From: Azolla caroliniana
Lineage: Eukaryota; Plantae; Polypodiophyta
NCBI GenBank assembly: GCA_043228905.1
Contig: JBHGNT010000003.1
Span: 23,064,001-23,128,000, forward strand
Direction: 5' to 3'
DNA: 64,000 bases
This document shows positions 1,036 to 62,124 of this stretch, in pieces. The stretch's first letter is position 1, and the number at the start of each line of letters is the position of its first letter. The position numbers and the translations under genes were made by a program. Under the pieces are notes generated by a model. It was not told the DNA's origin and did not search any database. It saw nothing but the letters and a program-made list of their open reading frames with translations.

Positions 1036-1735
1036 TGTCGTGAAGATTCGTCACTATGTGCGGATCGTGAGGCAAAAGCACCGGGGTCCTGGACCGGAAG
1101 GATTTTGAAGTTTGCACTAGCTTTAGCGAGAAAGTATTTAAGATAGATTGAGAGAGATTGATATGGCGAGAGAAAGATTTAGATGGAGAGAGAGAGAGAG
1201 AGAGATTAAGATTGAACCCTTGACTTTAGATTTGAGAAATAAGATTAATACATCATCAAATGGGATAACGAATTTTCTTTTCTATTAATTTCTTAATCCA
1301 TACATAGCTCCCTTCTTCTTTTCCATCCACTATTTTATAGATGCCCTCATGCATATGATGCATGTAAGGGTGCAAGACATGCATGTTTGCAATTTGGCAC
1401 TCATGCATTACATGTGATGCATGATAAACATGTCACTCATTCAAGCTCTCATGTATAAGAATTTACTTGTAAACACAATGATAAAAATATAATTCTTGAA
1501 GAAATGAATTGGTTTAGTGGTAAGTTTATTGCCTTTCCTCTTGGAGGTGCAAGGATCAAGCCTTGCTTACATACATCCCTTTGTATACAAATTTTTACTA
1601 GGTTTCTTGTATACACATTTTTACTAGGTTTCTTACTCTAGATAATTTTGTTCGTTTCACACCGAAATCATCGCGATCAACCTATCCGGTCCCGGTTTCG
1701 TCGTCGTCCGGCGGTCCAGTTCCGTCCAAAACCAA
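1036..1735 (-). mobile_element. Partial LTR (family ending ...CACGACA) containing tRNA-like A/B boxes
   Basis: Reverse-complement similarity to 61390-62124. The CACGACA end is at 1036, with A box 1510-1520 and B box 1553-1563. The other boundary is approximate. Confidence 0.7.
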
Positions 1736-2149
1736 TTAGAACAACTACTTATATATTCTTGAATCCTGTTGTTGTCCTATCTATGTGGGATATCCCACAG
1801 TTTATTTTCCTCTTCTTCTCAAACTTTACACTCACATAACTTGACATTAAGTTGTCCGTTTCACACGTATTAAATGCATTAGGAAGCTCTTGAAGACATC
1901 TATCTTTTCGTATCAAGATATTAAACTAATATAAAATTGTATCTTCATTATTATTGTTTCATATTGTGTGTGAAGAACCACACTCGATTTTGTACATTCC
2001 ATGCAATTTTCACACAGTTGCCGAAAATCTTCATGACATCCACCCCCACCAAACCGCACGTCCTCCGATATGTGCCAAGAAGAGAGAGTGTGAGATTTTG
2101 GCTATGGTGATCAATCAGATTCCTCCATGTCCTCGTTCACATAACTTAT

Positions 2150-3010
2150 GTCTGTAGGTTTTGTCCTACTATCTTCATCGTCAAGGTTATTGAGGTCAGA
2201 ATCCTTATCTTGTCTTTTCTTGAAAATCTTTACTCTTTTTCCTACAATGGGTATGGCCAACCTTCACCCGTCTAGCTCCGCAAGGTGGTATGTGGCATTG
2301 TCATTGGAACTTGTCACCACATACGGTCCAAACCATCTTCTTGCGAACTTTCTGGTTGTCATGTGTTAATTGTCAAGGCTGCAGTTGTAGACCAATACCC
2401 AATCTCCTTCTTTGATCTTCTTGGGACACAGTCGATGTGTCTTGTCGAACTGAATCTTGTTCTTCACTTGGTTTACCTCAATCATCTTTCGCGCTTTTTC
2501 TAAATCTTCAGGCCTTCATTCAAGCTACCTTATCCGTGCCACTAACAATTCTTCTTGGCTCATCTTGTTTTCCCATGGTATCACTATCCAGGAGGCGATC
2601 GTCCTTTCAATGGGCATTACCGGCTTTTGTCCATACATAAGCTTTGTTGGCATATACCTTGTCACTGAACTGTGTGTAGTTCTGTCGGCCCACAAGGCAT
2701 AAGGTAATAGTCGTGGCCAGTTCCCGACTTGACCGTTGCATGCTCGTACGATGGCTTTGACGATTGCTCCATGCCCTCGCTCGATCTTCCCATTTGCTTT
2801 TGGATTGTAGGCAGTCATGAGGGAGAGCTTCACGCTTAGTCGTTCGAAAAGCTCCGTTGCTTTGTGTGCATCCAATTCCCCTCGGTCGGCCACTATCTTC
2901 CCCACACATCCGTATCGGCAGACAACCTCTTCAAGTAGAAATTTGCAAATAGCTGACATCGTCTTATTTGCCAAGGCTCGTCCTTCCACTTGATTTGTCA
3001 AGCCATTTGC
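2150..3010 (-). mobile_element. Gypsy integrase remnant
   Basis: ORF 2525..3211 contains the rve core: CRYGCVGKIVADRGE, AYNPKANGKIERGH, LWADRTT. Confidence 0.85.
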
Positions 3011-4770
3011 AACCGAAGTAAGGGAAGAGCTATTTCGACTAAAGGTGGAATCACCACTTGGTTTCATGTAGTATGAAAGAAATTTCAAGGATTTGTGGAC
3101 AACATGGACTCGTATTCGTGGTGGCATTGAAGACGAGTGGTTTAAAATGGAATGATTCAAGATAGGTCTTGATATGTATTTCTGTTTGGAGGCAAACTTG
3201 AAGGATCCCACATCTTTTCAAGCTCTTATCCAAGTTTGTCAAGCTTACGAATGACAAGTGAAGATGATGAGTTCCATGGGGGACCCCCAAATGACGTCTT
3301 TGGGTGCAAATTTGATGCCTCATGCTAACTTTCAAGCCTCATATTAAATTGTGCATGGTGGACAAGTGTTTCCAAATGTGTATACCACCACAACAATAAA
3401 CCCAACAAGTATATCTCAAGAAGTGGAACAAGTGAAGAGTGAAGAAGATACAATGGCATTGGTAAATCGGTGCTCTAATGAAGTGATGGCCCACTTGCGA
3501 CAATCCCAAGCAATTCACAACACTATTCCCGATGGTGTAATTTTTTATTCTTGTCAAGAGGAGGGACACATCTCAACAAGATCTCCTCATCGACAACAAA
3601 GAGGCATGGGAAGAGGAATGTATCAAGTGCAAAGGAATGGACAACGACCTAACAACAATGAAGTTGAAGGAGGCGTAACACTTCCTATGGCTCAGGTTCC
3701 TACAATTCCTCATCATGTGAATCTTCTTAATTTTATTGATGATAGTGATATGTCTTGTGAAGTAGCTCATGTGAAAAGGACAAGGTACTCGCAAAAGGAG
3801 AAAGAAGTTGAAGGAGAATCTAGTGCCTTAAGACAAAAGAAGAAGTCTAAGGAGAATGAGAATGAGGAAATATTGAGAAGAAGACACTCTAGAAGAAAGA
3901 TCAAGATGGAGGACATTCCTATGGGTGAAGGTGTAGAAGCTTTCAATTTGCACCATGAGTTGATATCAAGTGGACCACGGATAACATGGTCGCAACTTCT
4001 CCGATTATCTCCCACATTGCAGCATGAGTTGATATCAAGTGGACCAAGGATAACATGGTCGCAACTTCTCCAATTATCTCCCACATTACGAAAGGAGTGG
4101 GGGCAGCTTGCAAGTATTCGCCAAAGTCGGAAGAGTGTGCGTTATGTGGGGATCGTGCGAGTAGAAGATCAAAAGGACATACGACCAACCATCCCCATCT
4201 CCATCAAAGGGTTTCACATCAGAGATGTCTTGGCTTGATTTCTGAATTTGTGGTAAACAAAGTGGGAATTCCTATTAGTAGGTCATCTTCGGCAAGGGTG
4301 GTTGTAGTTGATGGTGGAGTCGTTCATTGCATTGGCATCGTGGAGGATGTGGTCATCAAGTATTTTGGGGTAAGCATTTCGATGGATTTTCATGTAATAC
4401 CACTAAAAGGACCATCATATTCTTTGGTACTAGGAAGACCATGGATGCAAGAACTCAATGTTGTCCAAGATTGGAGCAAAGGTTTGATGACCATAACGCC
4501 ATCAAATGGAGTGAGCATACATTATGATATGCGGCAATAACGACTTATTGAGAAAGAAGAAGATGGAATAACTGAATATGATAGCGGGTCCGCATATGAA
4601 AGTGATGAAAGTGAAGATTCCTTATCAGAATAGGAAATGACAACATAATATGCCGTTTTGAAGGAAGAAGATGATGAAGGAGGTTTAATTACTATGGAGC
4701 AGAAAGAGAAGATGATTTCTAAAGATCTTAAAGGGTTTGTCCTCAATGGTAGAATACTACAGTACAAACT
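3011..4770 (+). mobile_element. Gypsy gag-protease remnant
   Basis: Degenerate zinc knuckle (FYSCQEEGHISTRSP) and protease C-terminal motif (FHVIPLKGPSYSLVLGRPW), with stops and frameshifts. Confidence 0.8.
3954..4088 (+). repeat. 69-bp in-frame tandem duplication in gag
   Basis: HELISSGPRITWSQLL(R/Q)LSPTL occurs twice. Confidence 0.9.
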
Positions 4771-5923
4771 TACTACGAATAATTTATGGTTATGCCCGTA
4801 ACATCCTCACCAATAACTTGATGAGATTCTTTTGTTTTACTTTGATCAACAATTCCTTTTTGCAATGCACGTCCTAAATTTCCCTATCAAAAGAAAAGGC
4901 CTTAGTTTGGAGCAAGTGTGTACTTGTTCAACATATAGTCGATGAATTTAGATTTTATCATGTATCTATATACATAATTACTCCATCCAGAACCAATCAA
5001 ATGATTGATATCATGACAACCACCACACTATGTAGTCATACACTAAGGGTTAGCATTGAGGAACTCACACCAAAATAATGGGTGGTTCTACGGTTCATAT
5101 ATGTTGACGCAAAATTAGAGCCAAATATCATTTTCCTATTTCTAAGATATCGGGGATTGCAGCATAATTAGGATATATGTATTGTGTTTATAATCAATGG
5201 TAGGCATTGAGTGATACCATATCTACAAAAGTTGAAGAGATTACCAATGTCAAAGTTTCGTTTGTTGGCATTGAGAACAAAAATATTCTATTTTCAAGTA
5301 ATATATGTGAAAGTAAGTAGCCACTCTTGATGTCCAAAAACTTTTACTGATGAATGTCATAATTGAGAGTGAAAACTAATCGGACAAGGAGAGAGAAATC
5401 CATCCAAAGATTGGGATTTGTCGAAAATGTGTGGAAAGCATAGCGAATGTGATGAAAGGCAAGAGGAATCCATCTAAATCTAATGATGAGACTCTCTCTA
5501 ATTTATTAGAGAAAGAAAGAAAGTTACATTAACGTCATCTAAGACCAGAATTGGCACATTAATGATACAATAAAGAAATGTGTACCTAATGATGCAAAAT
5601 TAAATAAAAACAAAAAATAAAGTGGCTTAAAAGGCCCCAATAATGGGATTGGCATACTCTACAATAACGAGATATGTATCCAATCATCCAAAATATAAAA
5701 ATAAAAATACATAAAAATAAAAATGGCCAAGGGGCCAATCCCAAAACGGAACATAAAATGCGAGGAGTTACATCATGCTAGAGAAAAAGAGAGATACGAG
5801 AAAAAAGGGGTAATTGCGTCTCCATAGATAGATAGCTGGAGACCTCCAAATTTGAGATGCTAAACAACAACTGGAAATGCAGGGAAGTAAGTTTAGAGAG
5901 TGTAAGTGGCAGGTAGCTAGGTG

Positions 5924-6730
5924 TTAGATTCTTGGATTGAAGCTAGCAATAAACAACATATCCTCTTCAGATTCAACTGCATTTTGGGCTTCGTTGAGAA
6001 GGTGCAATGCGCTGATCGTCGCATAATTATTGAGGTGAGGATCGAAGGACATGATAACTGGGTGGGCCACTACGGCACTGACGGCAGAGGATTCTGTTTT
6101 GAGGAGGTCCGACGAAGACAAGCCCTTCAGAGCATCACTAAAATCGAAGCGGCGGAAGTTGGTTTTGAAAATGCTGCTGTGATGCTTGAGGAGCGCGATT
6201 GCGAGCTCCAATGCACTCCGCTTCATATAGGGAAGCATTCGCTCTTGCTCGCTTGATCTTCGCATCTGCTCTTGGCCTCCAATAGCATCGCCTGACCTCG
6301 CCGGCACCGCCGGCATATCCATATTCATGAAGCTTCTCATTCCCATCTCCAATATGTCACCGGGCACGTCCCGCAGAAACCCACCCCATTGCCGCTACCT
6401 GCAGCGCCATCTGACCCCTTTCTCATGTTTTCTGCATATGGCATCATCATTTTCCTTATTGCCGGCATTATGCACGGCCTTCTGCAGTGGGGCAGGAGTC
6501 CTGTTTAATTCTACCGCGTGGGTGCTCATCTCTTTGATCAAGTTCAAGAGGCAGGTTTTGATGGTATGGAGAGCAGGGATCTCTGGTCAGATACTTGAGA
6601 AACTTTAGGGTAGTAATAGTTACTGGCATGGCATTGATGGTGATGGTATGACTATTGGAGGAGGTTACAGAGCCTCACTTCCAATATGATCCTCACTAGT
6701 GCTTTCATTCTGCGTAGCCATTGTTAGCAT
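5924..6730 (-). pseudogene. BLE2-like TM/ARM-repeat gene, copy 1 (internally deleted pseudogene retaining N- and C-termini)
   Basis: ATG 6730 gives MLTMATQNESTSEDHIGSEA, like copy 2. After a frameshift it reads ITTLKFLKYLTRDP..KTCLLNLIKE, matching VALRILKYMIRDP..KTCLLNYIRD of copy 3. The C-terminal LPYMKRSALELAIALL...SALHLL resembles the family C-terminus. In-frame stop present. Confidence 0.7.
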
Positions 6731-6749
6731 ATGAATACACTCAAAGCCA

Positions 6750-6793
6750 TGTATGTATGTATGTATGTATGTATGTATGTATGTATGTATGTA
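6750..6793 (+). repeat. (TATG)n microsatellite just upstream of the copy 1 ATG
   Basis: Seen directly. Confidence 0.9.
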
Positions 6794-7659
6794 TAGCTCT
6801 TACCAGAAACCATTATCAAGTGCCGAGTTCAATTTGACTGAGTTTTGTCTGTAGGTAGCAAAAGCTCTCCTAACGACAACTACCCACCAAAAGAAGAGGA
6901 AAGAGCAGCATTCAATGCCTCGTCAGCATTGACCTTAAAGAGTTCCGTACATTGACTGAAGTCTCCTTAGCCTCCCATCTACCCCAATCATCATCAATAA
7001 TGTATTGATCAGGTTTCTCCAGTGATTATTGGATTTAATCATGTAGAGGTTGCATTTGAGATCATGAAATGTATAAATTCTTCATGGGTTTGAGTATCAA
7101 AGGTAGAACTTTGACATTCAGATTAGCTGAATGACCAATATTACTTTGAGAACTTTTTGTTGTCAATCACTTCGAGATTGTTATATTTGAGTTTAGATGT
7201 CGACAAAGTTGCTCTTTTGCTAGGACACTATGCTTTTTATCGGACAATAAAGAAGCAATCCATTCTCGAGTTATCATCAACGGAAGTGAAGTACAATGAA
7301 TCTTGTTATTGTGGAGGACACTTCATAATGCCTATTAAGGGGAAATCTTGTCATAGATAGCATTTCCAAACATGGTTGTTTGCTATGGTGAAAGAGTATG
7401 TGTGGGTGGAACAAGTAGATCATGACCCAACAGTAATCCTAACACAAAAAAACGCCATTAAAGATCATGAAAATTATATTATGGGAACTAATAGAATCAT
7501 TATTACTCTAGAGGAATGATACAACTCTAGAGGAGTTAGATATCGACCTATGGAACAAATCGTTCGGACATATCAACTTCCCCCAACTTCGAGAAATGCA
7601 GATGAAGAACATTGTTTTCTATTACGAGCATGACCATATAATATCTATGGTGAGAATTT

Positions 7660-8051
7660 ACCATAGTATTCTATACACTACGTGAAATATGTAAAAAAAG
7701 CTAAAGTGTGCATGAAAACTAAAGTTAGAAAAAGCATGATGCTTGCATGTGATAAACTTAGACTCTTTCATCACTATATAAGGAAGAGAGAAAGATGTAT
7801 ATGGTTGTTGATTTTTTATAAGGATTGATTAATATAAAATATTCTTGGGATCCACAAATTTGCCATCTATTTCTCTCTTACAATCTAAGTATCAATTAAT
7901 GCACTATACTCGTAGGATTCACAATTTTCATATCTTCTTCTTGCAATCTTTTCCTAATTAACATTATCTCATATTCTTCTTTCCCCTAGTCCAAAACCCC
8001 AGTGGTTCCCACCCGACTCATGCAAACGATTTGGCGCTGAAAGGCACGACA
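7660..8051 (+). mobile_element. Internally deleted solo LTR, same family as 11893-12612
   Basis: Ends ...gaaaggcacgaca and shares ctacgtgaaa and cactatataagg blocks with the reverse complement of 11893-12612. Confidence 0.6.
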
Positions 8052-8700
8052 ATGTGGATAATGTATGAGGGTTAAACGAGAGTGTAAAGAAGGGGAGGAT
8101 TACTTTTAATTCTCACGATTCAGACAACCCATTAGGGCAAGTGTGAACTTTCCTGGGGGCCTTAGGTTTGGCTATAAATATGAGTACTTGCTACCCTCAT
8201 TCGACACATTATCGACTATGTGGAGACTCTATCATTGTGGTGGGTCAACTTATGTAGCCAGCACGCTAGCACCATGTACGACTCGACGCCACAACGGTGG
8301 TATGGGATGCCGATCGAGGCTCGGGGGTGATCGCACCCTTCTTTCTCTCTCTCCTTTCTTATTTATCAATCTTTTATCCTGATCATATGCGTACATTAGT
8401 AGCTAAGCTCTAACAATTGGTATCTGAGCCATGTTTCTAATGTTTCTTTTGTTGATTGTTTTTTTCTTGTTGGATGGTGATCGATTGATGTATGATCGAG
8501 CTTGATCCAGATAATTATCAACAAAGGAACTTTGGTAACTCTTTTTTTTATCTATTATTTCTTCTCCCAATATAAGCATGTATAGTCAATATGTACTTTT
8601 TTACATTGATTCAATTATGTTGTAGTGGTAATAATTGGTAATAATTAATATATGCATATATAATCACATGTATACGTATTTAATCGTATACGTGTGATAA

Positions 8701-8735
<35 letters not shown>

Positions 8736-9965
8736 TTTTTATTACGTGATTGTGTATGTCGAATGTTGTACTTTTCAGGGAAAGCATCAATGTCGTACTC
8801 ACCATCCTTTTTTTCAACAATTTTTTTTGTTGTTGCCATCTCCGTTGGTCACTTCAACCTTACTATGCGTTATAATGAAACGATTATAGCCACAATGATG
8901 TTGAGAGCATAGGGCGTAACCTACTTTAAGTGAGGTCGCCCCTATGACACACACATCCAACATCCCTCCCATGTTACATTGTTACGATGCCACCAGGAGA
9001 TCATCATTACGAAAGGCATTCGTAATGATGTAACCATGTGATGGGCCACGTGGGCCTACTATGAAAAGAGGGCTCGTGTGGTTTGACCATTAGGTTGCAC
9101 TTTGGGGTATGTCGTTGTAATGATGAGCCTTGAGGTTGGGTAACGTACCAACATAGTTTTGTAGTAAACGAGGGGGAAATAAGGACTCTCGACATATATA
9201 TTTTCATTTAAAAAAACATATATGGGCAAATGCCTTCGCATATCTCTCATATGCATAAACATTAAACCTTCAAAAGAAGCAAACCATTTTTTAGCTCAAG
9301 TGTTTAATGTATTTCTTCTCGAGGTTTCGAGTTCAAATATGACCAAGACCATACAACATTGTTGATACATATGACAATAACACATGTTTAGACTTGAGGT
9401 ATAAGTGCACTTCGAGATCCTCGTAATAGGACTTAAAGAGCTGAAACCACATGGGTAGCCGCAGAGATATAGTTTATTGTTAACAAGTTTTCGTGTTTAA
9501 ACTATTCATGAAGCAAACATACATGGTTGAGCCTCGGGGAGCTGCCATGAAAAAATCGAGATAAAGATCAGGGAAACACATTCATTTGTCACCCCCATGG
9601 TTTTTAAAACACCTTTGTGTTACCATAGTAACCTGATCTTGAACCTTATCTCATACGTTTAGAGGGGTATTGACGTGAGATGCTCATATCGATTAATGTT
9701 TGCCCATGATATGTTTACATCATGACATAATGTTATGACTATTTGTTTGACCTTATCCTACTTCTTTGCCAGAAATTATCATTCAATGGCTCATACTAAC
9801 GACCTGATCAGGAAATCCTCCTAGTCAATCCCCGTTCAGTCGTATTTGATATAAATACAAAATGTCTTTAATTCAACCGTGCATCAGATGTGTGAACTTT
9901 GGCAATCTCATAATGCTCTCGAGGCACGTGTCATTAGTTTACAACGTGATACTAATAGATTTGAT

Positions 9966-10402
9966 TGTCATGAGTAGATGATACCTCATGAGGTTTAGGG
10001 TGACTCGAACCTGTGACCTCCTAAGGAGAAGCACTTAGCTCTAGCCATTAGGTTATATATGTTGTACATAAAGATATTATAATTTACTTTATTATAATAT
10101 TGATAATGTAACCCTATAAATATCCGAAAGGGGCCATGACCTTTCAATATCCGAAAGGGTATCATGACCCTACAACATCCCAAAGGGTATCATGACTCTA
10201 CAAACATTCAAGGGGCACATACTACTCCTATATAAATAGGACATATTGTATTGTTAGAACTATTCTGGTTCAACACCAGTCTTTGGCAAATATTCTAGTT
10301 CTTGCTCTTGTATATTTTCCTATTATAATAAAATATAGTCATTGTTCTCTCTTTCTTTTCCTCTCTTGTTTAATCTTCTTTGGTCAAGCTAAGGCCTTGT
10401 CA
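9966..10402 (+). mobile_element. Solo LTR of the Tcn1-like chromovirus group
   Basis: Starts TGTCATGA and is 437 bp, with near-TSD ttgat/ctgat. TATA at ~10229 is followed by ggttcaacaccagtc, as in the LTR at 30066. Antisense B box 10001-10011 and A box 10045-10055. Confidence 0.75.
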
Positions 10403-11892
10403 CTGATGAGTGTCAAGGCGTACGATCATTTGTCGTAAAGCCATTTACGGGAGAAAAAAAGGAAAGAACCGAAGAAGCAATCTGCACGTGGTTGGGCTGA
10501 TGGGAGTCTCATTTTGAGCTCTATCCCAAGCCTGGTGGCGTGGGTTCTAGACTTTGGAGAAATTTCCCAATACCTAGACAAAATGTGTCATAGCTTTCAT
10601 GGGCCAATTTCTGTAACCTCCATCTCGAACCAAGGCAACACAAACTTTAATGAAGCTCTCTAGTAGGGAGTTCTCCTCGCTAGAAGACTATGTTCATGAT
10701 GCTAGAACACAAATCCAAAAATCGGGTCTAGAAGGGGACAATTAGTTGATAGCTTGTTTTGTCCATGGCATCCTCAATTCGGACTATCACTGGATAGTGC
10801 ACGATAAGGATCCCAAATCCTTCGGAGAGGTTGTTGAAATAGTTCTTTGCTATCAACACACTTCAAAGGACCATAACAAACCCAACGAAGCGCCTGGGAC
10901 TAAGCCGTCGCAATTTGCTGGGAAAGGCAAGACACCCAACAAATTCATGGATCGGGATTGTAAGCAACAAAATCCTTTTCGTGTATTCTACAAAAAGAAG
11001 GGCCATACAAAAGAGAAATGTCGAAAGCTCTAATGGAAAGAGCATGACAACAAAACAAAAGTTGCAGACTAGAAAGGACAGATTCCTGATGTCCTTGAGG
11101 TCTATACACATCATTTAAATAATTGTAAATGTTCTTTCCCTCACTATGTATTGGGACCTAATGATTTACTACGTGCAAACGAGTATATCAATGGATCTCC
11201 CGTACAATTTTTATTTGATTCGTGAAGCTCACACAATTTTGTGAATGATCGTTTGGTTCGGACATGGGGAATCTAACCCACCGTAAGTGATCACACCTAT
11301 AGGGTGTACTTGGCTGATGGAAGAGTACAGTATAATCAAAGAGGCGATTCATTCATTATGAATTTCTATTGTTATTTATATAGAGGAAGTAGACTTCCAT
11401 GTAATGAATCTTTGAACCACTAATGTAATACTAGGCTATCCCTAGTTTTATAATAAAAACTCTTCTTTGTCTATTGATTGGGTTCACCATTCCATTTCCT
11501 TTGCACTGAATGATTGTACTCATTTTATTCAATGTTTAAATAAACAATCTCTTTCGATTGTTTCCTCTCCATCAATATCTGAGTTATCTTGTTCTTCTTT
11601 ATTTTATTGTGTATTTGATCAGAACATTCATGTTTATAATAACGATAATGTCTCGGGGTCAATTATCATATTTTTAGGAACAACAGCTCGATGAAATCTC
11701 AAATGATTTTGGTGATGTTTTTCCGAGTGAACTACCACATGGGTTACCTCCTAAACGTAATCTAGACCACCGTATAGATATTGTACCTGGTGTTGCACCA
11801 ATAAGTATACCTCCTTATCGCATAAGTCGATCCGAAGAGGATGAGGTATCTAAGCAACTCAATGACTATTTACAAATGGGTTCACCAACTTG

Positions 11893-12612
11893 TGTCGTGC
11901 CTTTCGGCTCTGGATCGTTGCGTGAGTTGGGTGGGAACCGCCGAGGTTTTGAACTAGGAGGAAGAGGAATACAACTTAAGGCTAGTTATGAATAGTAGAA
12001 AGAGAAGTAAGATAGCAATCTCGTGAATCCCACGAGTTTAGTGTATTTAAAACAATATTTAGATTATAAGAGTAATTTAGATGGCAAAATTCGTGAATCC
12101 CACGAATATATTAGATTGATCAATCCTTGTAGAAAAATAATCAACAAAAACTATAATGTGCTCCCCATCCTTATATAGTGATGGGAGAGACTAAGCATAG
12201 CTAGCTTTTTTTTTTCTAATATGTTCATGCACACTAAATGTGCATGTGATGCTTTTCTAATCCTTGCTTTTATTTGCTAAATATAGTGCTCATGCACGCT
12301 AGATGTGCATGAGTCACTTTTTAGTTGCTTGCGTTTTTCTATAAAATATTCACGCACTCTAAAAATGCATGATTTACCTTTTAATAGGTAGGTGCAAATA
12401 AAGCACTTATAGTTATTAAATCTATTTGTAGAACACTAAAGATAAGGTAGCATAATGGTAAAGTTGAGTTTATCTATGTGGAGGTGCAAGGTTCGAATCT
12501 TGCCTTATGCATGTGATAAATATTTTGATATATTATTTATTTATTTATATGTATCTAAAATCGGATATATTATTTTATGGTTTTCACGTAGTGTGTGGAA
12601 TACACTACGACA
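11893..12612 (-). mobile_element. Solo LTR nested in Gypsy RT
   Basis: TGTCGT...CACGACA termini interrupt the RT-upstream reading frame. A box 12448-12458 and B box 12490-12500 are antisense to the LTR. TSD imperfect. Confidence 0.75.
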
Positions 12613-14519: not shown

Positions 14520-15762
14520 ATATACATCTTGATGAGTTGATGGCTTGATCCTATTCAAATAGAATTTATAGTAAACTTACCCCACGTCTCTAAGGTTTTC
14601 ATTTAAATGACTTTAGGTTTATCACTCCATATCAATATTTCCTAGGTTGAAAGATCATTGTTCTATTTATTATCATGTAAATCATTCGAGGAAGAGTGAT
14701 GTCAGATGATTACCTAGAATGTGGTATTGCCGCAATTGATGCATATGTGGGCTCTAATGTTGATCGCACCATACGTTGTTGCCGCTCGGAACACGTTTTG
14801 AATAGTCTATTGTCACATCTTACTGCTCTACTAATTGCCTCCGTAAGTGATTTGGGATCCTTCGGAAAAGTTAGAAGCAAATCCTTTACATCATTGTGAA
14901 GGCCATTTTAGAAAGCCCTGAAATTACGAGTGCTTGATGCCTGAGTTGGATAATGTGTCGGGTGCATTTGAATTACGAATCGTACCTGATTCAGAAAGCC
15001 CTGAAATTACGAGCGCGTTCGATCAAACCTTGCTGGAAGACATATCTTAGGTTCCTTAAAAATGCCTTGGTTTTCGATTGCTTGTTGTTGTCAAGACTCT
15101 AGTGCCATCTCTAATTTTTGAACTTGTTCCTCATATTGTCGTACTCGTTGTTTCAATCCTTCATCTTGTTGTCGCTTCTCCATTATGAGTTGTTGTAGAT
15201 CTCCAAGTAGACGTTGATTATCTTGTTCAAGCATCACGAATTTGCCTTTCAAGCATTCAAGCTCTGATAGGACAAATTGATGTTCCTCAAGGCTAATGGA
15301 AGCCAATAGAGTGCTAGGAGATTTTGGGTAGAGGTGAATTCCAGTTCAAACTACCAGTGCGCGGACAAGAGAAAAGGATAGAGGTGCTTAGAAGAAGCGG
15401 AATGGAGATATTTATTATTACACTAGGGTAGAGAATTAAGAGGATGAATGATAATGTAGGCTAGAGGGCTCGAGACTGGTGTTGAATTGGAATGGCTTGA
15501 AAATAGTGAGGGGCTGCAATTTATAGGAGTGGGTGATGCCACATGTAGGAGCAATCAATGGCATGTGTCATCCCTGCAACTGCAATCAATGGCACATGTC
15601 ATCCCTGTTTTGGAATATTCCAAAATGTTCTATAATGCTATATATATACATCTCTTAATAATGACATGAATTATTATCACATAATCTAAATGACCCAACG
15701 GGTAAGGTGTTATAAGATGTGTGCTACAGTTGAGGGTTCGAGCTTTGCTATTATTCATGATA
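14520..15762 (-). mobile_element. Truncated Tcn1-like chromovirus (5' LTR ~15352-15762 plus deleted gag)
   Basis: MASISLEEHQFVLSELECLKGKF and GLHNDVKDLLLTFPKDPKSLTEAISRAVRC are homologous to gag of the element at 24966. Confidence 0.8.
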
Positions 15763-15800
15763 GGTTTCAATGCAATTTTAGGAAGTCGATGTGAGAGAAT

Positions 15801-18923: not shown

Positions 18924-18967
<44 letters not shown>

Positions 18968-24905: not shown

Positions 24906-25481
24906 AATTTTCTTTATTGGAGCAAGTGGAAATTCTTTCGTCGGTGGGGTGTTTGTCTTGCCTATTGTCATGATATGGCAAGAATCGAACCCATGACCTT
25001 ATGCTACATGGGTCGAGCTCTTACCATTAGACTATGAATTATAATTTGTAGGATATTATTTTCATTTATGTTTTATCATAGAAAATTGATGCATATTCCA
25101 GATCTCTTTGGAACATTCTAGAAGCTTTAGGATTATTCCTAAAAACACTATAAAAGGAGGCACAAGGCATTATTTTGAACCAAATTGGTTCAATGCCAGT
25201 CTTAAGCCTCTTAGCCGCTTGTACTTATCTTTTCACATATTATATTAGCTGTTGTCATCATCTTTCTCTCTCTCTCATCCTCGCTATCTCTCTCTCTCCT
25301 CTTCTCACTTCCTCTGTCGGGAATCTTACGCAGTCCCGTCCTCTTAGTACTAATAGTACTACTCTTCTTAGTACTAATTCCATCTCTGCTTTAGTACTAT
25401 TCCTAACAGTTTGAACCAATTTTCTCTTTCCTCCAGCCTACTTGTCGTTCTCCCTCATCTTCCTACCCTTTTCCCTATACT

Positions 25482-26636
25482 ATGGCTACTGTTAGCGCCC
25501 AAGAATATCAATCCATTTTCTCTGAGTTACAGTGCCTAAAAGAAAAGTTTGTTGCCCTCGAACAAGAAAACCAACGGTTGATAGGGGATCTGCAACAAAT
25601 CGCTCTCAAAAAACAACAAACGCAACAACAACCTGGGGAGTTAGCATTACGAGTACAACAACTCGAAGCAAAATTGCAACAAGGATCAAGTCCCCAAGGA
25701 TTTCATAAAGAGCCCAAGATTGGACTTCCTGTGTAATTTGATGGAACGCGATCGCAATTCTGGGGATTCCTTAATCAGGTACGCTTAGTCATCCAGATGC
25801 TTCCTTCCCGATATCCCACTGATGCATCTCGAGTCGGCCTAATAGGCACGTTACTTAGCGGCTCAGCCTTGGCATGGTTCACTCCGCTTCTAGAAAAACA
25901 ATCGCCCTTGCTTAATAACTTTGAAGATTTTATTGGTGAGTTTAAAGCTTGCTTTGGAGATATCGATAGCATCAGGACGACGATCAACAAGATCCGAAGA
26001 TTGCGTCAAGGCGATCGTCCAGCCTCTGCCTACGCGGCGGATTTCCGTCTACTCACCTCAGATATCCCCTGGGATGATCAGGCCCTCATGGAGCAGTTTC
26101 GCTACGGGTTGCGCAATGATGTCAAAGATTTGCTTTTAACCTTCCCCGAAGAACCAAAGTCTCTCACGGAGGCAATCAGTCGAGCGGTCCGATGCGTCAA
26201 CCGCCTTTTCGAACGGCGTTTGGAACGTCAGTTACAAATACCACGCTCTCGGCCGGAACCCACATACGCCTCAGTCACGGCTAAACCGTTTGCACGCGAT
26301 GTACCTCAAGCCAATATTCCGACACCGATGGAGATCGACACCATGCGTCGACGCGGCCCGTTATTGGAAGAAGAAAAGCAACGACGACATGCCAATCGAT
26401 TATGTCTTTATTGCGGTGGACCAGGGCATATCGCCATCAATTGTCCCCATGGGCCAAGAAGACAGGTAAATCAAATCGTCGCCTGTACTAAACCCGAGTC
26501 AATTCTTCCCTTCGGAGTGTCTGATAGTATTAATAGTACTAATAGAGTGTCAGATAGTATTCATAGTACTAATAGCCCAAGTATCTCAAACAAATTTGAA
26601 ATCCTTAGTCAATTAGATGAAGAGTTAAACGATTGA
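25482..26636 (+). CDS. Chromovirus gag (one in-frame stop at ~25736)
   Basis: ORFs 25482..25736 and 25797..26636, with CCHC CLYCGGPGHIAINC and the TPMEID motif. Confidence 0.85.
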
Positions 26637-29600
26637 GTCTAGCCAAAATAGGAGTTGTTTGGTTCGACAGCAGCCCTAGATATGTACAGCCCATTAGTGG
26701 TTCCATTCCTTCCAAGCAAGTTAGCAATGTGTTCCTAGCCCAAGTCATTGTTAGTACTAAAAGTACTCCCTCAGTACCCGTCCTAGCACTCTTAGATTCC
26801 GGAGCTAATTCCTGTTTTATGGATCGAAATTTTGCCCAAGCTTCTCAGATATCCCTAAGGAAACTTCCTTGTCCCGCATCTGTAGTGGTCATTGATGGTC
26901 GTCCCATTGCTCCGGGAATATTGGAGAAGAATCAGAACCCATTCAAGTTGTCCTAGGTAGTTTTTTGTGTGTAATATCATTTAATATAATTAGTAGTCCA
27001 GAGCATCCCATTGTCCTAGGATTACCTTGGTTTGAATTACATAATCCAGCCATAGATTGGAGAACAAGAGAAGTCCGATATCGACCACCCCAAGAATCTA
27101 CTCACCGAGTTTCGACCATTTCACTCCATCAATTACGCGAAGAAGGACACAAGGAGGCAATGTTCCTATTTGCAATATCAGTACATCCTTCCAGCACTAT
27201 TAAGAAGGACTCCTCAATACAACTTCCGGCAAAATATCATCCTTATGCCGATGTATTTGACAAGGTAAAAGCCGGTACCCTTCCTCATCACCGTCCCTAT
27301 GACTCTCCCATCGATTTACAACCAGGAACCGAGCCACCATGGGGACCAATTTACAACTTGTCACCCACCGAGTTAGAAGTCCTTCGAGCCTACATAGAGG
27401 AGAACTTGGCAAGCGGGTTCATCCGTCATTCAAAATCTCCAGCCGGTGCACCCATCTTCTTTGTCAAGAAGAAAGATGGCTCACTTCGTCTCGTCGTTGA
27501 TTACCGTGGATTGAATAAGGTCACCATCCGGAATAAGTATGCACTTCCTCTTATATCAAGCCTTTTAGAGTGACTTAATGGTGCCAAGTTTTTTACTAAA
27601 ATCGACCTAGGAGGAGCGTATAACCTCGTGCAAACCCGACCGGGAGATGAATGGAAAACCGCCTTTCGCACGTGGTATGGGCATTTCGAGTATACTGTTA
27701 TGCTGTTCGGCCTAACCAATGCACCCGTAGTCTTATCTCCGCGAGAATGGTCTTTATGCCAAGCTAGAAAAATGTAGCTTTGACTGCAAGCAAGTGGAAT
27801 TTCTAGGCTACGTCATCTCCTCAAAGGGCATCGCCATGGATCCAGCTAAAATCCAAACTGTACTAGACTGGCAAATTCCACGGTCGGTACGAGATGTTCA
27901 ATGTTTTCTAGGTTTTTCTAACTTCTACCGTAAGTTTATACAGGACTACTCGAAGATTATTTTACCTCTCACACAACTTACGAAGAAGGGCCAAGAATTT
28001 CTTTGGTCCATCGAAGCAGATATGGCTTTTCGGCATCTTAAGAAAGCCTTTACATCAGCACCGATTCTAGCTCATGTGGATACAAGCAAACCATTCATCA
28101 TGGAGGCCAACGCATCAGATTTCGCCCTCGGTAGCATCCTTTCTCAACAAGGAGATAAAGAAGAGTTGCATCCGGTGGCTTTCCATTCGCGCAAATTCGA
28201 TGTCGCAGAAATCAACTACGAAATACATGACAAGGAGTTATTAGCCATCGTGGATTCATTTGTACAATGGCGGCATTTCTTAGAGGGCTCTCCACATCAG
28301 GTCATTGTCTTTAGCGATCATAAAAATCTTGCTTATTTTCAGAACGCTCGCGTACTAAATCGACCGCAAGCTCGGTGGGCGCAATTCCTCACGTGTTTCG
28401 ACTTCGAAATCACATATCAACCGGGGAAGCAGCAAGGAAAAGCAGATGCACTATCACGGCGTTCATATCTTGCACCTCGTCCTGGTGACGCAACATTTGA
28501 TAATCAAAAGCAACTAATCTTGGGACCAACACGATTGCACACGACGCGGATTTTTCACACCCCGATGGATTCACGGATTACCGATGACATACGTGCAACC
28601 TTGAAGACGGATAGTTTTGCTCAAGACATCCTGGCGCACATTGATAGTTCTCGGGCATCCTGTTCTCAGTCTCAACAACCAGGTATTGACTACCGACAAT
28701 TCGAATATCATGATGGTTTGTTATTCTTTAAAAAGCGCGTATATGTCCCCGATTGCTCCTGTCGCCTTCAAATCGTCCAACATTGTCACGACACCCATAC
28801 GGCGGGACATTTCGGTAGTACCAAGACGTTGGAGCTAGTGCAGCGATCTTTTTGGTGGCCCCACATGCGCCGTTTTGTCGACGACTACGTTCGGACCTGT
28901 GATGCTTGCTGCCGAGCAAAGATGCCACGACACCATCCATATGGCTTGTTGGAACCTTTACCAATTCCAAGTAAGCCATGGCAGTCTATTTGTCTTGATT
29001 TTATCACAGATCTGCCGGTCTCGAAGGGGTTCGATGCTATCCTAACCGTCATCGATCGATATACGAAGATGGCACATTTTGTGCCATGTACTAAAGCCAT
29101 CACTAGCGAGGAAACCGCCGCTCTTATTATGCGTGAGGTATTTCGGCATCATGGCCTCCCAGACAGTATTATCAGTGACCGAGGCCCGCAATTTGTCTCC
29201 AAATTTTGGCAGCATCTCTTCAGGATGCTCAAGGTCTCCTGCAACCTCTCCTCCGGCTACCATCCTCAGACCGACGGACAGGCGGAACGAACAAACCAAA
29301 CGTTGGAGCAATATCTCCGGTGTTTCTTGAGTTATCAACAGGACGATTGGGCCGAGATTCTCCACTTTGCGGAGTTTGCGTATAATAATGCTATTCACTC
29401 CTCGACTCGGGTCTCCCCATTTTTCGCTTATACCGGTTTCCATCCTCGCTGGTCGGTGATCGACACTCCGGAGCTACCTACCAACCCTCGTGCCGAGGAC
29501 CATTTGGAGAGGCTACGCAAGATCCAGATGGATCTCTCTACTCACCTTCGTCATGCTCAACACACACAGAAGACTTATGCGGATTGTCATCGGATTCCCT

Positions 29601-30053
29601 CCTCTTTTGCCATCGGAGATCGAGTATGGCTCTTACGTCGTCACATCAAGACTACTCGACCGTGCGACAAGTTGGATTATCGACGACTCGGTCCTTTCCG
29701 TATTACGGGGAAGATTAATGATGTCACCTTCCGCCTTGATCTCCCTCCGCAGCTTCAGATACATCCGGTTTTCCATTGTTCTCTTCTTGAACCTTATAAA
29801 GCAAACACCATTCCCGATCGTGTGACACCACCGCCGCCCCCGAGTATGAAGTTGCTGCCATCCTCGATTCCAAACTTGTTCGCAACAAACTTTATTACTT
29901 GGTCGATTGGCTCGGTTATAGTCCGAGCGAACGTACTTGGGAACCCGTCGAGCATGTTGCCAATGCATAGGATCTTCTTGCTGATTTCCACCGAAAGTAT
30001 CCGGACAAACCCGGTCCGCAATCAGCGCCAACTCGTTCCACTCGTCGTCTTTA
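26633..30053 (+). CDS. Chromovirus pol (PR-RT-RH-INT-chromodomain), disrupted
   Basis: ORFs 26633..26956, 26965..27573 and 27794..30073. Chromodomain [35 protein letters not shown] follows a frameshift at ~29842. Confidence 0.9.
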
Positions 30054-30635
30054 AGGGGGAGATAGTGTCATGATATGGCAAGACTCGAACCCATGATCTT
30101 ATGCTACATGGGTCGAGCTCTTACCATTAGACTATGAATTGTAATTTGTAGGATATTATTTTCATTTATGCTTCATCATAGAAATTTGATGTATATTCCA
30201 GATCTCTCTAGAACATTCTAGAAGCTTCAGGATTATTCCTAAAAACACTATAAAAGGAGGCACAAGGCATTGTTTTGAACCAAATTGGTTCAACACCAGT
30301 CTTAAGCCTCTTAGCCGCTTGTACTTATCTTTTCACATATTGTATTAGCTGTTGTCATCATCTTTCTCTCTCTCTCATCCTCGCTATCTCTCTCTCTCCT
30401 CTTCTCACGTCCTCTCTCGGGAATCTTACGCAGTCCTGTCCTCTTAGTACTAATAGTACTGCTCTTCTTAGTACTAATTCCATCTCTGCTTTAGTACTAA
30501 TCCTGACATCTATTGGCAATTTAGCATGTTCCACTACCCATGTAGTGTAGTTAGTGCGTGGCCATACTCCATTGTCACACCCATTGTAAGTAGTGTTTTT
30601 TTCACACATTTATAACTGTAATTGTGTGTTTTCAC

Positions 30636-46138: not shown

Positions 46139-46244
46139 CTGAAACAATAAAACAATGGAAGTTAGGTTACTATATAATAGCCAGAATTAAAGAGAGAGAG
46201 AGATTAGGTAAGGTAAGTCTAATGTATTTAGAGAAAGAAATTGC

Positions 46245-57042: not shown

Positions 57043-60000
57043 ATTAAAGTGCATATGTGAATATAGGCATGAATTTGTCGTAATAATTTGGACTGATGAG
57101 CTATATATCTATCTATATATATAATTAGTCATGGAGCATAACTGCAATGCAATTAAAATTATCACTAATTCTCTTATGTTCCAACCTCCCCTTTCCTACA
57201 ATATCTATGTACTTGCACACTAATCAGTAGATTAGACTTTAGCGAAGAGCTTGTTAGAATATTAACATATTAATATTAAAAGTAAAACGTTATTAGAAAT
57301 AGGAAATATATCATAAATAAAGAAAATAAAACTAACTAATGTAACCACCTATTACGTGACTTTTGTTCACACAACCATTGGTTAGAAAGTTACCTTCATG
57401 TGAGATGCAATCACAATGAACATTCCCATTACAAGCTTCCCTATGATCTCTATTGCCTATAAAATGTAACATCTACCATGAACACATGTAATTCTTCTTT
57501 CTTCATAATATATTAAGTCATATGTATCCACTTGTTATTCTTTGTTAGATAGTGCTTTAAATTCCTACATGGTATCAGAGCCCTCTAATAGGAATTAAGG
57601 AACAACCATCAAGAAGATCAATCCGGAAGATCTACGAAGATGGAGTCTAACACAAGTTCAACAAACAAAACAACATCCATGACAAGAAAGTACACCATGG
57701 AGAAACTCAACGACATAAATTATGGAATGTGGAAATTAAGGATGAGTTTAATCCTTGAAAGAGCACAATTAATCGACATTGTGAAAGGTAAAATACCACC
57801 CTAGAGTTGGAAGAATGGAAAAATAAAGATTTAGATGCACACATGGAATTGGTTATGCATCTAACTGATGAACAAATAGATTTAGTAAAAGATTTAGAAA
57901 CATCAAAAGAAATATGGGATGCCTTGAAGGAACGCCAGGAACCCTCGGACAGAACAACAAAGATTAACACCTTGAGACACCTTGTCACATTGGAAATGGA
58001 AGAAAGTGAAGAAATTGACACATTCATCAGAAAATGGCCGTTGGCCCTCGAGCAAGCATTATCAGTAGGTAATAAAATTGATGAAGATATGAAATTCGAT
58101 TTAATTTTTGGGGCTTTACCAGATTCGTGGGACACCTTTGTCACCACACATGGAAATGATGACGTTTCAAACATGAAGAATATGTTTCTAAAAATGAAAA
58201 GAGAAGAGATTCGAAGAATAAAGGACAAGGCGAAACATAACAATGGATCAATGGCAATGAGCGCAATTACAAGATTTCAAAAATCTAACTTCTCAAAGCC
58301 AAGATTTCAAAAGGTTCAAAGGTCATACAAGCCAAATCAACTATCAAAGCAAGGAGCACTCAATGTTTCTACAATCATATGTAGATATTGCAACAAAATG
58401 AGACACATGGAAAGAGAATGTCGCCGGAAGCAATATGATCAAAGAAACAAAGGTAAAAGATACAATTTCCAAGCACATTCTGCATTAATACGTAATGAAG
58501 AAGAAGACACATCGTTCATACAAGCATTCATGTCAGAAGTACAAACTACAAAATTCAAATGGAAAGATTATGGTACTTTGACACCGGATCCACCCACCAT
58601 CTCACCCATAATCGAGAATGGTTACATAATTATAAACCACTCCATCATCCACTTAAGGTACGCTTCGGAGATAATGGTATGAAGTTAGCTCTTGGAAAAG
58701 GTACAATTTATCTATCAATAAATAACAAATCGAAAATTACAATCTCGAATGTTTACTTTGTCCCCGGTTTAGCAAAGAACTTACTGTCTGTAAGTGAGGC
58801 TACATCAAATGGAACAATAATCGAATTTCATTACAATTGTGCTATAATTCGTTACAAGTTACCTACGGGAGATATAATTAAAACAACATGTCCGAATATC
58901 GGAAATTTGTATCCATTAAAGATGATGGATCATGCGCCAATTGAAGCATACATAAATTGAAGCATACATAGCTTCAAGCCATCAACAAGATGATCAAACA
59001 TTGATATGGCACCATCGGCTAGGCCACCTACATCCCAAATCAATAAAGAAAATTCAAACACATAAGCTTGTTGAAGGTATACCAACTAAACCATTTCAGT
59101 ATTTATCTATTTGTGAAGGATGTATTTACGGGAAGCAAAGTAGAAGAAAGTTCCCTCACCATATTCATCAAAACGAGAGGGCACTCCAAATCATTCATTC
59201 CGACTTATGTGGGCCGCTACAAATACCTTCAATAACCGGTAATTGACATTTCATTACCTTTATTGATGACTTCACAAGATTCACCATAATTTACTTCATG
59301 AAGAGTAATGCCGGTGCTTTCAATGTCTTCAAAACTTATAAAGCACTTCCTGAAAACCAACGTCAATCTCAAATTAAAACAATTAGAACAGATAATGGTG
59401 GAGAATATTGTTCAACTGAATGGAAGACATTTTGTAAGACACAAGGAATAAGACATGAGTTTACAACTTCATACAATCCACAACAAAATGGTGTTGCGGA
59501 GCAAAAGAATAGGACACTACTAGACACAAGAAGGAGCATGCTTCAAGTGGCCGGTCTACAAAACAAGTTTTGGCAAGAGGCCATCTCTACGACATGTTAT
59601 TTACAGAACCGATCTCCGCACAAGGTACTCAGATTGAATACACCTTTTTTCTTATGGTTTGGAAGGAAACCTAATGTGGAACACTTAAAGATATTTGGTG
59701 CAATCGCTTATAGTCACATTTCTCCTAAGTTAAGAAAAAAATTAGACCCCCATAGTATTAAATGTATAATGGTAGGATATGGCGAATCCGAGGGGATTAA
59801 GGGATATAAATTATTTAACCCACAAAATAATAAATTTATATATCGTCGATCCGTCATTTTTGACGAACAAGTAGTATCCCCAAAATACCCTATAAACTTA
59901 CAAAATATCCCCCTTATACATTATGTAAATAATCACAAATATGGGAAGGAGCATGTCAATAACATAAGAGAATCATTAGAATTAGAAGGGTTCAAAGAAG

Positions 60001-61312
60001 AAGAGGAGAGCCAAGAGGTACATAAAATCAAGATAATTAAGAATTTACCAAATAAAAATATAATGCACACATCCACAAGCATAGCACAAGAAGTGGATGG
60101 TGATGCTAGAGAGGTTGGTGGTGGCATTATAATAGAAGGCAACATAGAGGTGGAACATCGTAACAATGACGACGGTGATGGCATGGTGGAGCTAAGAGAA
60201 AATGAAAGGAATGATACTCCCACTCCTAGCATAAACAACCACTCTTATAGCTTTTCATCTCCCACCAATTCTTGGCAAACCCCAACTCACAATTCTGTTT
60301 TTTCCCCCACTTTTCTAAATTCAAAATTTTCAAAACCAACTTTTGCAAATTCAAAATTTTCAACTCTACCACTTCAAAACCAACTTTTCTAAATTTAAAC
60401 TCTACCCCTTCAAAATCCACCTTTCCACAATCCATTTTCTCAAATCCCTCAAATCAAACCTTAGGATTTCCACACCAATGAACTCAAGCTTTAGGATCCT
60501 CTTCAAAAGATATATCTCAAGGTGACACCACCCCAATTGAAAATATAGCGAGCCCTATAACTATGAAGGAAAAGAAGTATAGATCCTTAAATGAGATTTA
60601 TGAGATAACCGATCCTATGGAAGCACTAATGGTGGATTTGGATGAAGAGAATGAATACATTGAAAATCATGAACCACAAGCCCCTTTGCACAACATCCAC
60701 CCATCGGTTAAAGATGCATTACAAAGCCTCGAACGTCTTCAATGGCAAACAACCATGCAAGCGGAAATTGATGCACTAGAAAAGAATGGCACATGGAGTT
60801 TAGTGCCTCGACCCAATGGTAAGAATATTATTTCTTGCAAATGGGTACTCACAAAGAAATTTGATTCCAATGGAAAGCTAGATAGATTGAAGGCCCGCCT
60901 AGTTGCAAGAGGATTTACCCAAATCCATGGCATCGATTACAAAGATACTTTTGCACCAACTTTGAAGATGGTTCCAATGCTCTTAATATTTAGCATTACC
61001 ACAGGTCTAAATCTCGAGCTTCATCATATTGACATCGAGACCGCCTTCTTGCATGGAGACCTTGATGAAGAAATATATATGGAACAACCTCCATACTTTG
61101 TAAGCTCAACAATCCCTCATTACGTATGTAAATCACATAAATCATTGTATGGATTAAAACAATCATCTCGAATGTGGCACCACAAACTTCACACTTATCT
61201 TGAAGCTATTGGATTTAGACGCCTTCAAGCCAAGCCAACTTTATACATTCGGAAGGAACACACAAATCTTGTTATCATTGGTGTATATGTAGATGATTTG
61301 CCAATTGCTTAA

Positions 61313-62124
61313 AACTCCACCAAATGAACTCCACCAAGGTAACTTGAACTAAGAGTGGAGGTGGCCTTGCCACTCGTAAAGGTTTTGGCCAACCAAAACG
61401 GAACTGGACGGTAACCGGGGATCGGCGGATCCGGCGAGGCGGCGATATCAGCATCCGACGGGCTGGCGAAAGCGGTGGCATATGGCGATCGATGGTAACC
61501 GGCATCCGGTAAATTGGCGTCATCCGGCATCCGGCGACCAAATTAATAAATAAATATATATCACATATATATACATGAGGAGGGCAAGTGAGGATTCGAA
61601 CCTTGCACCTCCTAGTTAAGAGTCAATAAGCTTACCACTAAGCCATGACATTTAGTTGAATTTATATTTCTATCATTGTACTTTTACATGGAAATTTTTA
61701 TGCATGAGAGCTAAAACGAGTGACATGGTTATCATGCACCACATGTAATACATGAGCGCCAAATGGCAAACATGCATTTTATGCATGTCTTGTACCCTCA
61801 CATGCATCATATGCATGAGAGCATCTATAAAAGAAGGGATGAAAAAGAAGAAGGGTTAGGCTTCTTTTGGGTTATGAAATTAAGAAGAAGAGAATTCGTT
61901 ATCGAATTGATCGTGTAACTTATTTTAAAATCTAAAATCAAGAGTTCAATCGTAATCTCTCTCAATCTAACGTCAAACGTTCTATTCAATCTCAAGCTCT
62001 CTCTCTCTTTCAATCTAGCTTAAGTACTTTCTCGCTAAAGCTTGCGCCAACTTCAAGTCCTTCTGGTCTAGAACCCCGGCGGTTCCGCCTCACGATCCGC
62101 CCGTAGTGACGGATCTTCACGACA
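61313..62124 (+). mobile_element. LTR fragment (...CACGACA family) replacing part of Copia RT/RH
   Basis: Homologous to 1036-1735 (reverse complement). Antisense B box 61592-61602, A box 61635-61645 and TATA ~61826. Confidence 0.75.
61585..61650 (-). promoter_or_regulatory. tRNA-like Pol III type-2 promoter inside an LTR (best-preserved copy; Lys-CTT-like loop)
   Basis: TGGCTTAGTGG-N32-GGTTCGAATCC with gactCTTaact in the spacer. There is no complete cloverleaf. Confidence 0.7.

Follow-up and report, generated by a model that had tools for sequence, protein, structure and literature searches.

Background

How do long terminal repeat (LTR) retrotransposons that insert into silent chromatin stay transcribable? 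A conserved module of 54 nucleotides (nt) and two boxes may bear on this open question; it recurs in LTRs of a 64,000-nt stretch of the genome of Azolla caroliniana (contig JBHGNT010000003.1, positions 23,064,001-23,128,000). We call this stretch the window and count coordinates within it; the genome scanned comprises 523 Mb. Judged by boxes and spacing, the modules are tRNA-type (type-2) promoters of RNA polymerase III (Pol III), lying antisense in the LTRs of coding Gypsy elements. They are real and lineage-wide, and Pol III modules in LTRs are already known from TRIMs (terminal-repeat retrotransposons in miniature) and from foamy viruses. We suggest, as a proposal with an even chance of being right, that the modules may be a DNA docking site for TFIIIC that helps to keep the Pol II promoter of the element open in young copies. 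Published work is cited by accession, for the passages that concern the point at hand.

Seven modules in the window

An initial annotation of the window had listed seven pairs of an A box and a B box, separated by 31-33 nt, each antisense within an LTR and upstream of its TATA box. Every box sequence and position agrees with ours, and the spacers measure, in order along the window, 32, 33, 31, 33, 32, 32 and 32 nt. Self-comparison, scans of open reading frames and genome searches place 7/7 modules inside an LTR, antisense and 5' of the TATA box, as had been claimed. The LTRs are of Tcn1 type and Phygy type, on grounds given below. The features are:

1036..2038, minus strand: 3' LTR of Phygy-type family B2, with the polypurine tract (PPT) at its edge
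1510..1563, plus strand: A/B module of the family B2 LTR, antisense; its B box is the weakest among the seven
9966..10402, plus strand: solo LTR of Tcn1-type family D, with a near-matching 5-bp target-site duplication (TSD)
10001..10055, minus strand: A/B module of the family D LTR, antisense
11893..12612, minus strand: 5' LTR of Phygy-type family C, with the remnant of a tRNA-Trp primer-binding site (PBS)
12448..12500, plus strand: A/B module of the family C LTR, antisense; a run of four T (T4) lies about 20 nt past the B box
15250..15762, minus strand: decayed LTR of Tcn1-type family E; left end approximate
15691..15745, plus strand: A/B module of the family E LTR, antisense; the A box has 12 nt
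24966..30508, plus strand: full-length Tcn1-type chromovirus, family A, with 443-nt LTRs (24966-25408 and 30066-30508), a 5-bp TSD, gag, reverse transcriptase (RT), RNase H, integrase and chromodomain
24981..25034, minus strand: A/B module in the 5' LTR of the family A element (A box 25034-25024, B box 24991-24981)
25149..25156, plus strand: TATA box of the family A 5' LTR, at LTR position 184, back to back with the module
25409..25421, plus strand: self-priming site of family A, adjoining the 5' LTR; it complements sequence immediately 3' of the TATA box
30081..30134, minus strand: A/B module in the 3' LTR of the family A element, antisense
57252..62629, plus strand: Copia element taken as negative control, with a Met PBS and 318-nt LTRs that lack a module
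61335..62124, plus strand: 5'-truncated LTR of Phygy-type family B, sitting inside a Copia element
61592..61645, minus strand: A/B module of the family B LTR, antisense

Stops and frameshifts interrupt the coding region of the family A element, and a tRNA PBS is absent at the site after its 5' LTR. The A box of its 5' module lies 69 nt from the LTR start, and a long hairpin is predicted over the module. A second, weak box pair at 25227/30327 overlaps the self-priming sequence of this family and is probably incidental. That the Copia LTRs of the window are free of modules had also been stated, rightly: the best score for the element at 57252 is 0.0. An exact 202-nt tandem duplication at 12513-12917 takes in the 5' end of the family C LTR and an adjoining RT fragment, the module not included.

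A tRNA-type promoter in excess of chance

We counted strict A/B pairs in an 864-kb sample, made up of the window and eight 100-kb blocks chosen by coordinate and holding one real tRNA gene. At 42-45 nt between the starts of the two boxes there are 29 pairs, against 0.2 in shuffles; at other distances there are 12, against 7.8. Genome-wide, the strict A-N32/33-B pattern has 8,124 exact matches and its reversed control has one. Among the first 30 matches, 24 fall in LTR families, 4 in tRNA genes and 2 are unclassified. Eighteen of the 24 were assigned through a located LTR end or PBS, and these are all antisense (18/18); the other 6 were assigned through likeness.

Scored with a matrix built from host tRNA boxes alone, the modules mostly reach 17-34 bits and host tRNAs 25-37, while shuffled LTRs average below 8 (highest single shuffle 24.5 bits). 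The distance from A to B box in the modules, 43-44 nt, is that of the host tRNA genes for Asp, Gln, Arg and Lys. The DNA upstream of the modules is 74-93% AT, and AT-rich upstream DNA is described for plant tRNA genes (in passages of PMC13437025). CAA occurs upstream in 11/24 modules, a count that has no background control for comparison.

The cloverleaf, as had been noted before, is lost: ARAGORN reports 0 genes in the window, Rfam no tRNA, and cloverleaf stems pair at chance (28/77, 26/44, 23/55 and 24/44; p 0.28-0.87). The modules are not functional tRNA genes, there being no cloverleaf with an anticodon, and tRNA mimicry was rejected, since the stems pair at chance.

Two Gypsy lineages carry the module

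A chromodomain at the integrase C-terminus, TSDs of 5 bp and self-priming in place of a tRNA PBS characterise families A, D and E. The chromodomain (PF00385) was matched on a 96% identical protein, and the nearest named proteins of these families come from chytrid, basidiomycete and fish/frog elements. By these published traits the families fit Tcn1 chromoviruses; on our trees the carriers cluster with mostly distant chromovirus-like contigs, apart from a Met-PBS chromovirus (support 97). Families B, B2, C and I have 4-bp TSDs of the form NCGN (CCGT, ACGT, GCGT) and a PBS complementary to the 3' end of a host tRNA-Trp(CCA) gene. They fit Phygy by TSD and PBS; the unnamed "other LTR families" of the initial annotation would then be Phygy. 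The RT domains of the two lineages share about 26% identity.

With the same matrix, and after removal of 5 spurious repeat pairs, the antisense module is found in 12/12 full Tcn1 and 6/9 full Phygy elements, and in 0/18 other full elements (Copia and other Met-PBS, Arg-PBS and Ala-PBS elements, Tat-type included). A census anchored on the chromodomain, which makes no use of the boxes, gives 42/52 rows of at least 15 bits antisense and 1 sense, with a spacing of 43-45 in 48/48 rows of at least 10 bits; some families count more than once among the rows, and some hits are split. A census anchored on the PBS agrees as to the distribution of the module. Clusters with a Met PBS reach at least 15 bits in 6/38 cases; five of these scores come from nearby LTRs of families A, B2 or D, at a distance of 690-1070 nt, and the sixth from an inserted 200-bp repeat.

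On the protein tree the Tcn1 carriers are monophyletic (support 100), with one loss (L324; L and C numbers are our labels for loci and contigs) and two members that have only the B box. Phygy families without the module nest among the carriers (support 100). Loss in Phygy would be the simpler reading of a tree whose root is uncertain. In these trees one entry, P_C4-34813, was mis-sliced and took in a Tcn1 RT, and L171 and L018 have too little coding sequence.

Outside Azolla we scored relatives on metagenome and IMG/VR contigs. Of the 86 scorable loci left once 16/102 with less than 250 nt downstream were dropped, a single one passes the antisense threshold: L323, the closest relative (75% identical). 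Distant relatives stay below it. A search of viral contigs with a single protein found no relatives. An angiosperm-type chromovirus LTR on an IMG/VR contig (L418:4725-5100), which is Tekay-like by its PPT and terminus, has two A/B modules in sense orientation, each followed by a T run after 23-25 nt. A further candidate, L334, has 23.9 bits in sense orientation, but with a 49-nt spacing and a broken B core it was put down to chance.

Some carriers have more than one module. The LTRs of Phygy-type family I at L251:2495-3370 and L251:8983-9857 (C19 block 82495-89857) hold two tandem antisense modules 136 nt apart. In an LTR of Tcn1-type family K (L175:7682-8075) the first 90 nt are duplicated in inverted orientation, which gives one sense and one antisense module. 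Pieces of family D LTR have been locally amplified in tandem, in units of about 930 nt (L156-L162, L167, contig C13).

What is conserved between families

We compared 11 diverged families, whose LTRs barely align. Their A boxes have a pairwise identity of 0.70 and their B boxes of 0.69, against 0.33-0.42 in the spacer and 0.29-0.33 in the flanks. In Tcn1 the B box lies anywhere between 11 and 63 nt from the LTR end, while the spacing from A to B holds. The module lies less than 100 nt from the PPT and LTR end in Tcn1 and more than 100 nt inside the LTR in Phygy; the TATA box is about 115-270 nt from it. The variable-loop motif AGGT is kept in 9-10/11 families and would mark descent from a tRNA. 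Boxes and a geometry of 43-44 nt thus persist where spacer and cloverleaf have gone. This pattern suggests selection on a DNA promoter, and the module is probably selected in these lineages.

The initial annotation had also considered that the module might be a sporadic insertion of a short interspersed element (SINE) with its own tail and TSD. This did not hold up: its position is fixed clade-wide in Tcn1, and no tail is present in the 11-63 nt to the LTR end, divergence being too great for a TSD to be read.

Two further observations concern the boxes themselves. When the CpG of the B box decays, TG breaks the box and CA is tolerated. Copies show 36 TG and 17 CA. Four lineages lack CG (G, K/K2, X and I), none of them identified through the boxes, and each has CA, which would happen by chance with a probability of about 0.01, on few copies per lineage; alternatively, CA could be ancestral in them. 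Contigs from sequencing runs of two other organisms have A-box variants at degenerate positions and none at T8, A14 or G18.

What weighs against a strong role

Several facts weigh against a selected docking site, and they are gathered here. The representatives of the families are related, so that the counts above are not independent. The AGGT motif, which is kept, is not known to be required by TFIIIC. The modules of L418 are in sense orientation, hence antisense is not obligatory.

Among inserted copies the boxes are no more conserved than the spacer or the remaining LTR. Mismatch outside CG and CHG contexts in genomic copies is 0.038 for the A box, 0.037 for the B box, 0.047 for the spacer and 0.029 for the rest of the LTR; nominally this is the outcome that the initial annotation had named as telling against its idea. 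Such a comparison mostly measures decay after insertion. Shared variants are fewer at the core positions of the boxes only (2/60 vs 22/149 sites, p=0.017), and a shared:singleton test of these positions gives p=0.34. The claim that coding elements maintain a selected module therefore stands in part: chromoviruses and a second Gypsy lineage do retain the module, antisense and across the lineage, Copia has none, and selection as then worded is not upheld, since the boxes of copies vary like the spacer.

The CpG of the B box is intact in 28/30 copies of family A, 17/30 of B, 11/30 of C, 19/27 of D and 15/28 of E. In B, C and E this is below the family median for CpG, so most copies are not shielded from methylation-driven decay, and the earlier suggestion of a lasting "anti-silencing insulator" is weakened.

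Active lineages also include some that have lost the module or part of it. A Phygy clade that lacks it has been recently active, one member having 98.7% identical LTRs, and the Tcn1 element L324 lacks it too. A14 is missing from the youngest Tcn1 burst, which counts 140 nearly identical LTR matches and has kept the B box and lengthened the hairpin. In this subfamily (L165:2531-8220; L485-L496), which has a non-canonical A box, the LTRs of one pair are identical at 440/440 positions.

In two young Phygy elements damaged boxes are identical in both LTRs (LTRs 699/704 and 717/721 identical). One round of copying thus went ahead despite a damaged U3, the 5' portion of the LTR, and this suggests that the module acts on DNA, at the 5' LTR; gene conversion could also give identical damage in both LTRs, and this too counts against us. 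The module would be helpful, not essential.

Proposed mechanism

TFIIIC binds A and B boxes and positions TFIIIB upstream (PMC13437025). In the LTRs, TFIIIC would likely dock at the antisense boxes near the 5' edge of U3, and TFIIIB would likely be loaded between the module and the TATA box. Docking may then keep the Pol II promoter of fresh copies open, the site of action being presumably the integrated 5' LTR. Boxes and spacing that are kept, RNA structure and terminators that are not shared, and elements that transposed with damaged boxes together fit such a DNA site. Antisense orientation may have been favoured because Pol III would run away from the Pol II promoter and not through it. The module may have originated by one capture per lineage, or by a single capture followed by LTR exchange, from a tRNA or the head of a tRNA-derived SINE. 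Selection would act in the replicating lineages, and old copies would lose the module through methylation-driven decay. Any Pol III RNA would be mostly a by-product. Pol III output is in general repressed by stress.

Published observations touch on parts of this scheme. In yeast, TFIIIB and TFIIIC limit the spreading of Sir proteins, according to passages of PMC9540200. RLG1, a chromovirus of moss, has its expression in unstressed protonema, comes under repression when there is stress, and is thought to insert in heterochromatin (PMC7466625). If elements of this type do so, an open promoter would matter to them.

Other explanations

Alternatively, the module could be a true Pol III gene, its product an antisense or hairpin RNA that tunes silencing of the element or a host target. 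We consider this unlikely, yet it is the alternative that fares best. A hairpin, which the initial annotation did not mention, is predicted over the module throughout the A clade (z -4 to -7; -6.7 for the family at 24966/30066), with a compensatory extension in the youngest subfamily, and microRNAs from foamy-virus LTRs offer a precedent (described in passages of PMC3993851). No common fold was found beyond the A clade, however (z -3.3 to +1.2). As to termination, counted in families A, B, C, D and I, 28/29 copies of family C and 4/4 of family I have a T4 run no more than 40 nt from the B box, above a control of four A (1/29 and 0/4). Such runs are scarce in LTRs of A (4/44), B (1/28) and D (4/24), where the flank would determine the ends of the RNA. 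In families A and A4 about 1.35 kb before the 3' LTR (window 28730-30066), antisense to integrase, is poor in T4 (1 run vs 5.3 expected, p=0.006, post hoc). Families A2, A3, D, E and K have no long T4-free stretch, and long antisense read-through was rejected as a general feature. C>T changes are slightly raised inside the module unit (odds 1.6, p=0.02; 7 tandem-cluster loci, L156-162, excluded), but C>T and G>A are symmetric (p=0.48), and we set aside transcription-linked mutation as a weak and symmetric signal.

The module could also be a neutral relic, an old tRNA or SINE insertion in an ancestral LTR that has been hitchhiking since. The decay of boxes among copies like their surroundings would follow, as would the losses in Phygy and Tcn1. 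A pool of donors exists as well: a free repeat of about 200 bp has two facing A/B modules, with one head about 90% like the module of family K. It is flanked by (GA)n or GA-rich runs at 30/30 loci (L293-L322, e.g. L223:4415-4650; also at L169 and L132), and no tail and no clear TSD were found at these 30 loci; the 2,431 candidates of a first look are not a copy number. Against a relic, spacer, flanks and stems have diverged in 11 families whose boxes and exact spacing persist, CpG outcomes at the level of lineages are compatible with the box, and position and orientation are the same in lineages as far apart as the two RT domains indicate. We regard a relic as improbable.

It is quite improbable, in our judgement, that an RNA or single-stranded DNA structure at the edge of U3 is selected, for plus-strand priming, strand transfer or integration, with the boxes merely part of its sequence. 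The closeness of the Tcn1 module to PPT and LTR end would suit this, and the youngest burst did exchange A14 for a longer stem. Yet the Phygy module lies well inside the LTR, most families have no significant fold, and elements with the boxes of both LTRs damaged did transpose.

That the modules are landing pads for retroelements targeting tRNA genes is very improbable, for although one Copia element lies 28 nt upstream of a family E A box, interruptions within 200 nt upstream of the A box occur in only 2/158 module-bearing LTR copies. We looked at 60 flanks of that Copia family, of which half were internal sides, and the sole outer-flank module lies at a distance of 333 nt. Nor is there a fixed distance in flanks of families A, C and D, and insertion distances upstream of modules have no peak in our sample.

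Comparison with known systems

The closest relatives in kind are the TRIMp3 elements (Helenus, tRNA-like; Cassandra and Ajax, 5S), as described in the relevant parts of Kojima 2024 (PMC10886601). Like the modules described here, the Helenus LTR has tRNA-derived A and B boxes and no functional tRNA, an origin by SINE insertion is proposed for TRIMp3, and in the supplement AGGTC precedes the B box of the Selaginella Helenus LTR, as in our modules. Helenus is short (311-1263 bp) and non-coding, whereas our carriers have 5.5-8 kb, code for gag-pol and have their own TATA box. In the supplement entries the Helenus module runs in sense, and production of the template RNA is proposed for it; ours point outward. 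By their sequence traits, then, the carriers differ from TRIMp3 in size, coding and orientation and share with it a small-RNA-derived LTR promoter. In the same paper "not a few" Repbase LTRs are said to resemble tRNA, only TRIMs being followed up in the passages at hand, and autonomous partners are expected to use Pol II. The feature may therefore sit undescribed in Repbase.

Foamy-virus LTR microRNA cassettes are, as here, A/B-box Pol III units in the LTR of a coding retroelement (PMC3993851). According to the passages on these cassettes, box mutations lower expression and the product is a terminated hairpin microRNA; here, in contrast, a strong hairpin is confined to one clade and terminators to two Phygy families.

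As for the carriers, a chromodomain, self-priming, a 5-bp TSD and LTRs of about 440 nt are shared with Tcn1 as characterised in passages of Neumann 2019 (PMC6317226), Novikova 2010 (PMC2864245) and the work on RLG1 (PMC7466625). The term "Polymerase III" is absent from the main text of the Tcn1 classification papers PMC6317226 and PMC2864245. With Phygy, as listed in PMC6317226, our families share the 4-bp NCGN TSD, the tRNA-Trp PBS and coding sequence that fills the interior, and no chromodomain was seen in them; they measure 6.7-8 kb against 7.7-10 kb, and boxes in the LTR are not described in the Phygy passages of that source. A literature search, which covered neither Repbase entries nor most subscription papers, turned up no report of boxes like these in the LTRs of coding Gypsy elements from plants.

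Yeast extra-TFIIIC sites are chromatin-organising sites made of A and B boxes. Our modules resemble them, except in being mobile, element-borne and present in thousands of copies, and a barrier role for them is putative. A and B boxes also act as chromatin-organising DNA sites in the tRNA-gene and TFIIIC barriers treated in passages of PMC9540200 and PMC7544208.

Other features of the window and the genome

In the window a 919-codon open frame among repeats (43407-46166, minus strand) has a weak match to a Roc domain (E 6e-5, which misses the curated cut-off). About 4 kb are duplicated (36640-40831 and 48436-53046); the copies are 90% identical, lie 12 kb apart and have internal tandem units. 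Elsewhere, Arg-PBS Gypsy elements (L213:9634 to L214:8989; C12 block 66141-82943; C6 block 2289-21047) have a copy of a tRNA-Arg 3' end where the PPT is expected. At L263-L271, L280, L281, C8:17.80-17.82 Mb and C16:4.99-5.11 Mb there are tandem clusters of genes for tRNA-Lys, Ile and Arg and 64 clustered matches to a tRNA-Trp 3'-end pattern, one of them confirmed as a gene.

Implications

The modules extend Pol III modules in LTRs from non-coding TRIMs to autonomous elements, and in an orientation that is unable to make genomic RNA. A broader suggestion can be made, though we hold it as doubtful: coding plant Gypsy lineages may repeatedly have put the Pol III machinery of the host to use, as an activator or barrier that travels with the element and serves its Pol II promoter, antisense in Tcn1 and Phygy and sense in the angiosperm-type chromovirus. 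If this is true, thousands of TFIIIC sites have been seeded, far above the number of tRNA genes. Expression of the transposons would then be tied to growth signals, and this could explain why RLG1 is active in unstressed moss and repressed under stress. If the modules are bound, the TFIIIC sites of the genome would come chiefly from these LTRs (the strict pattern has 8,124 exact matches, and in the sample of matches classified about four fifths lie in LTRs), and this would bear on the organisation of the genome and on the existence of TFIIIC barriers in plants.

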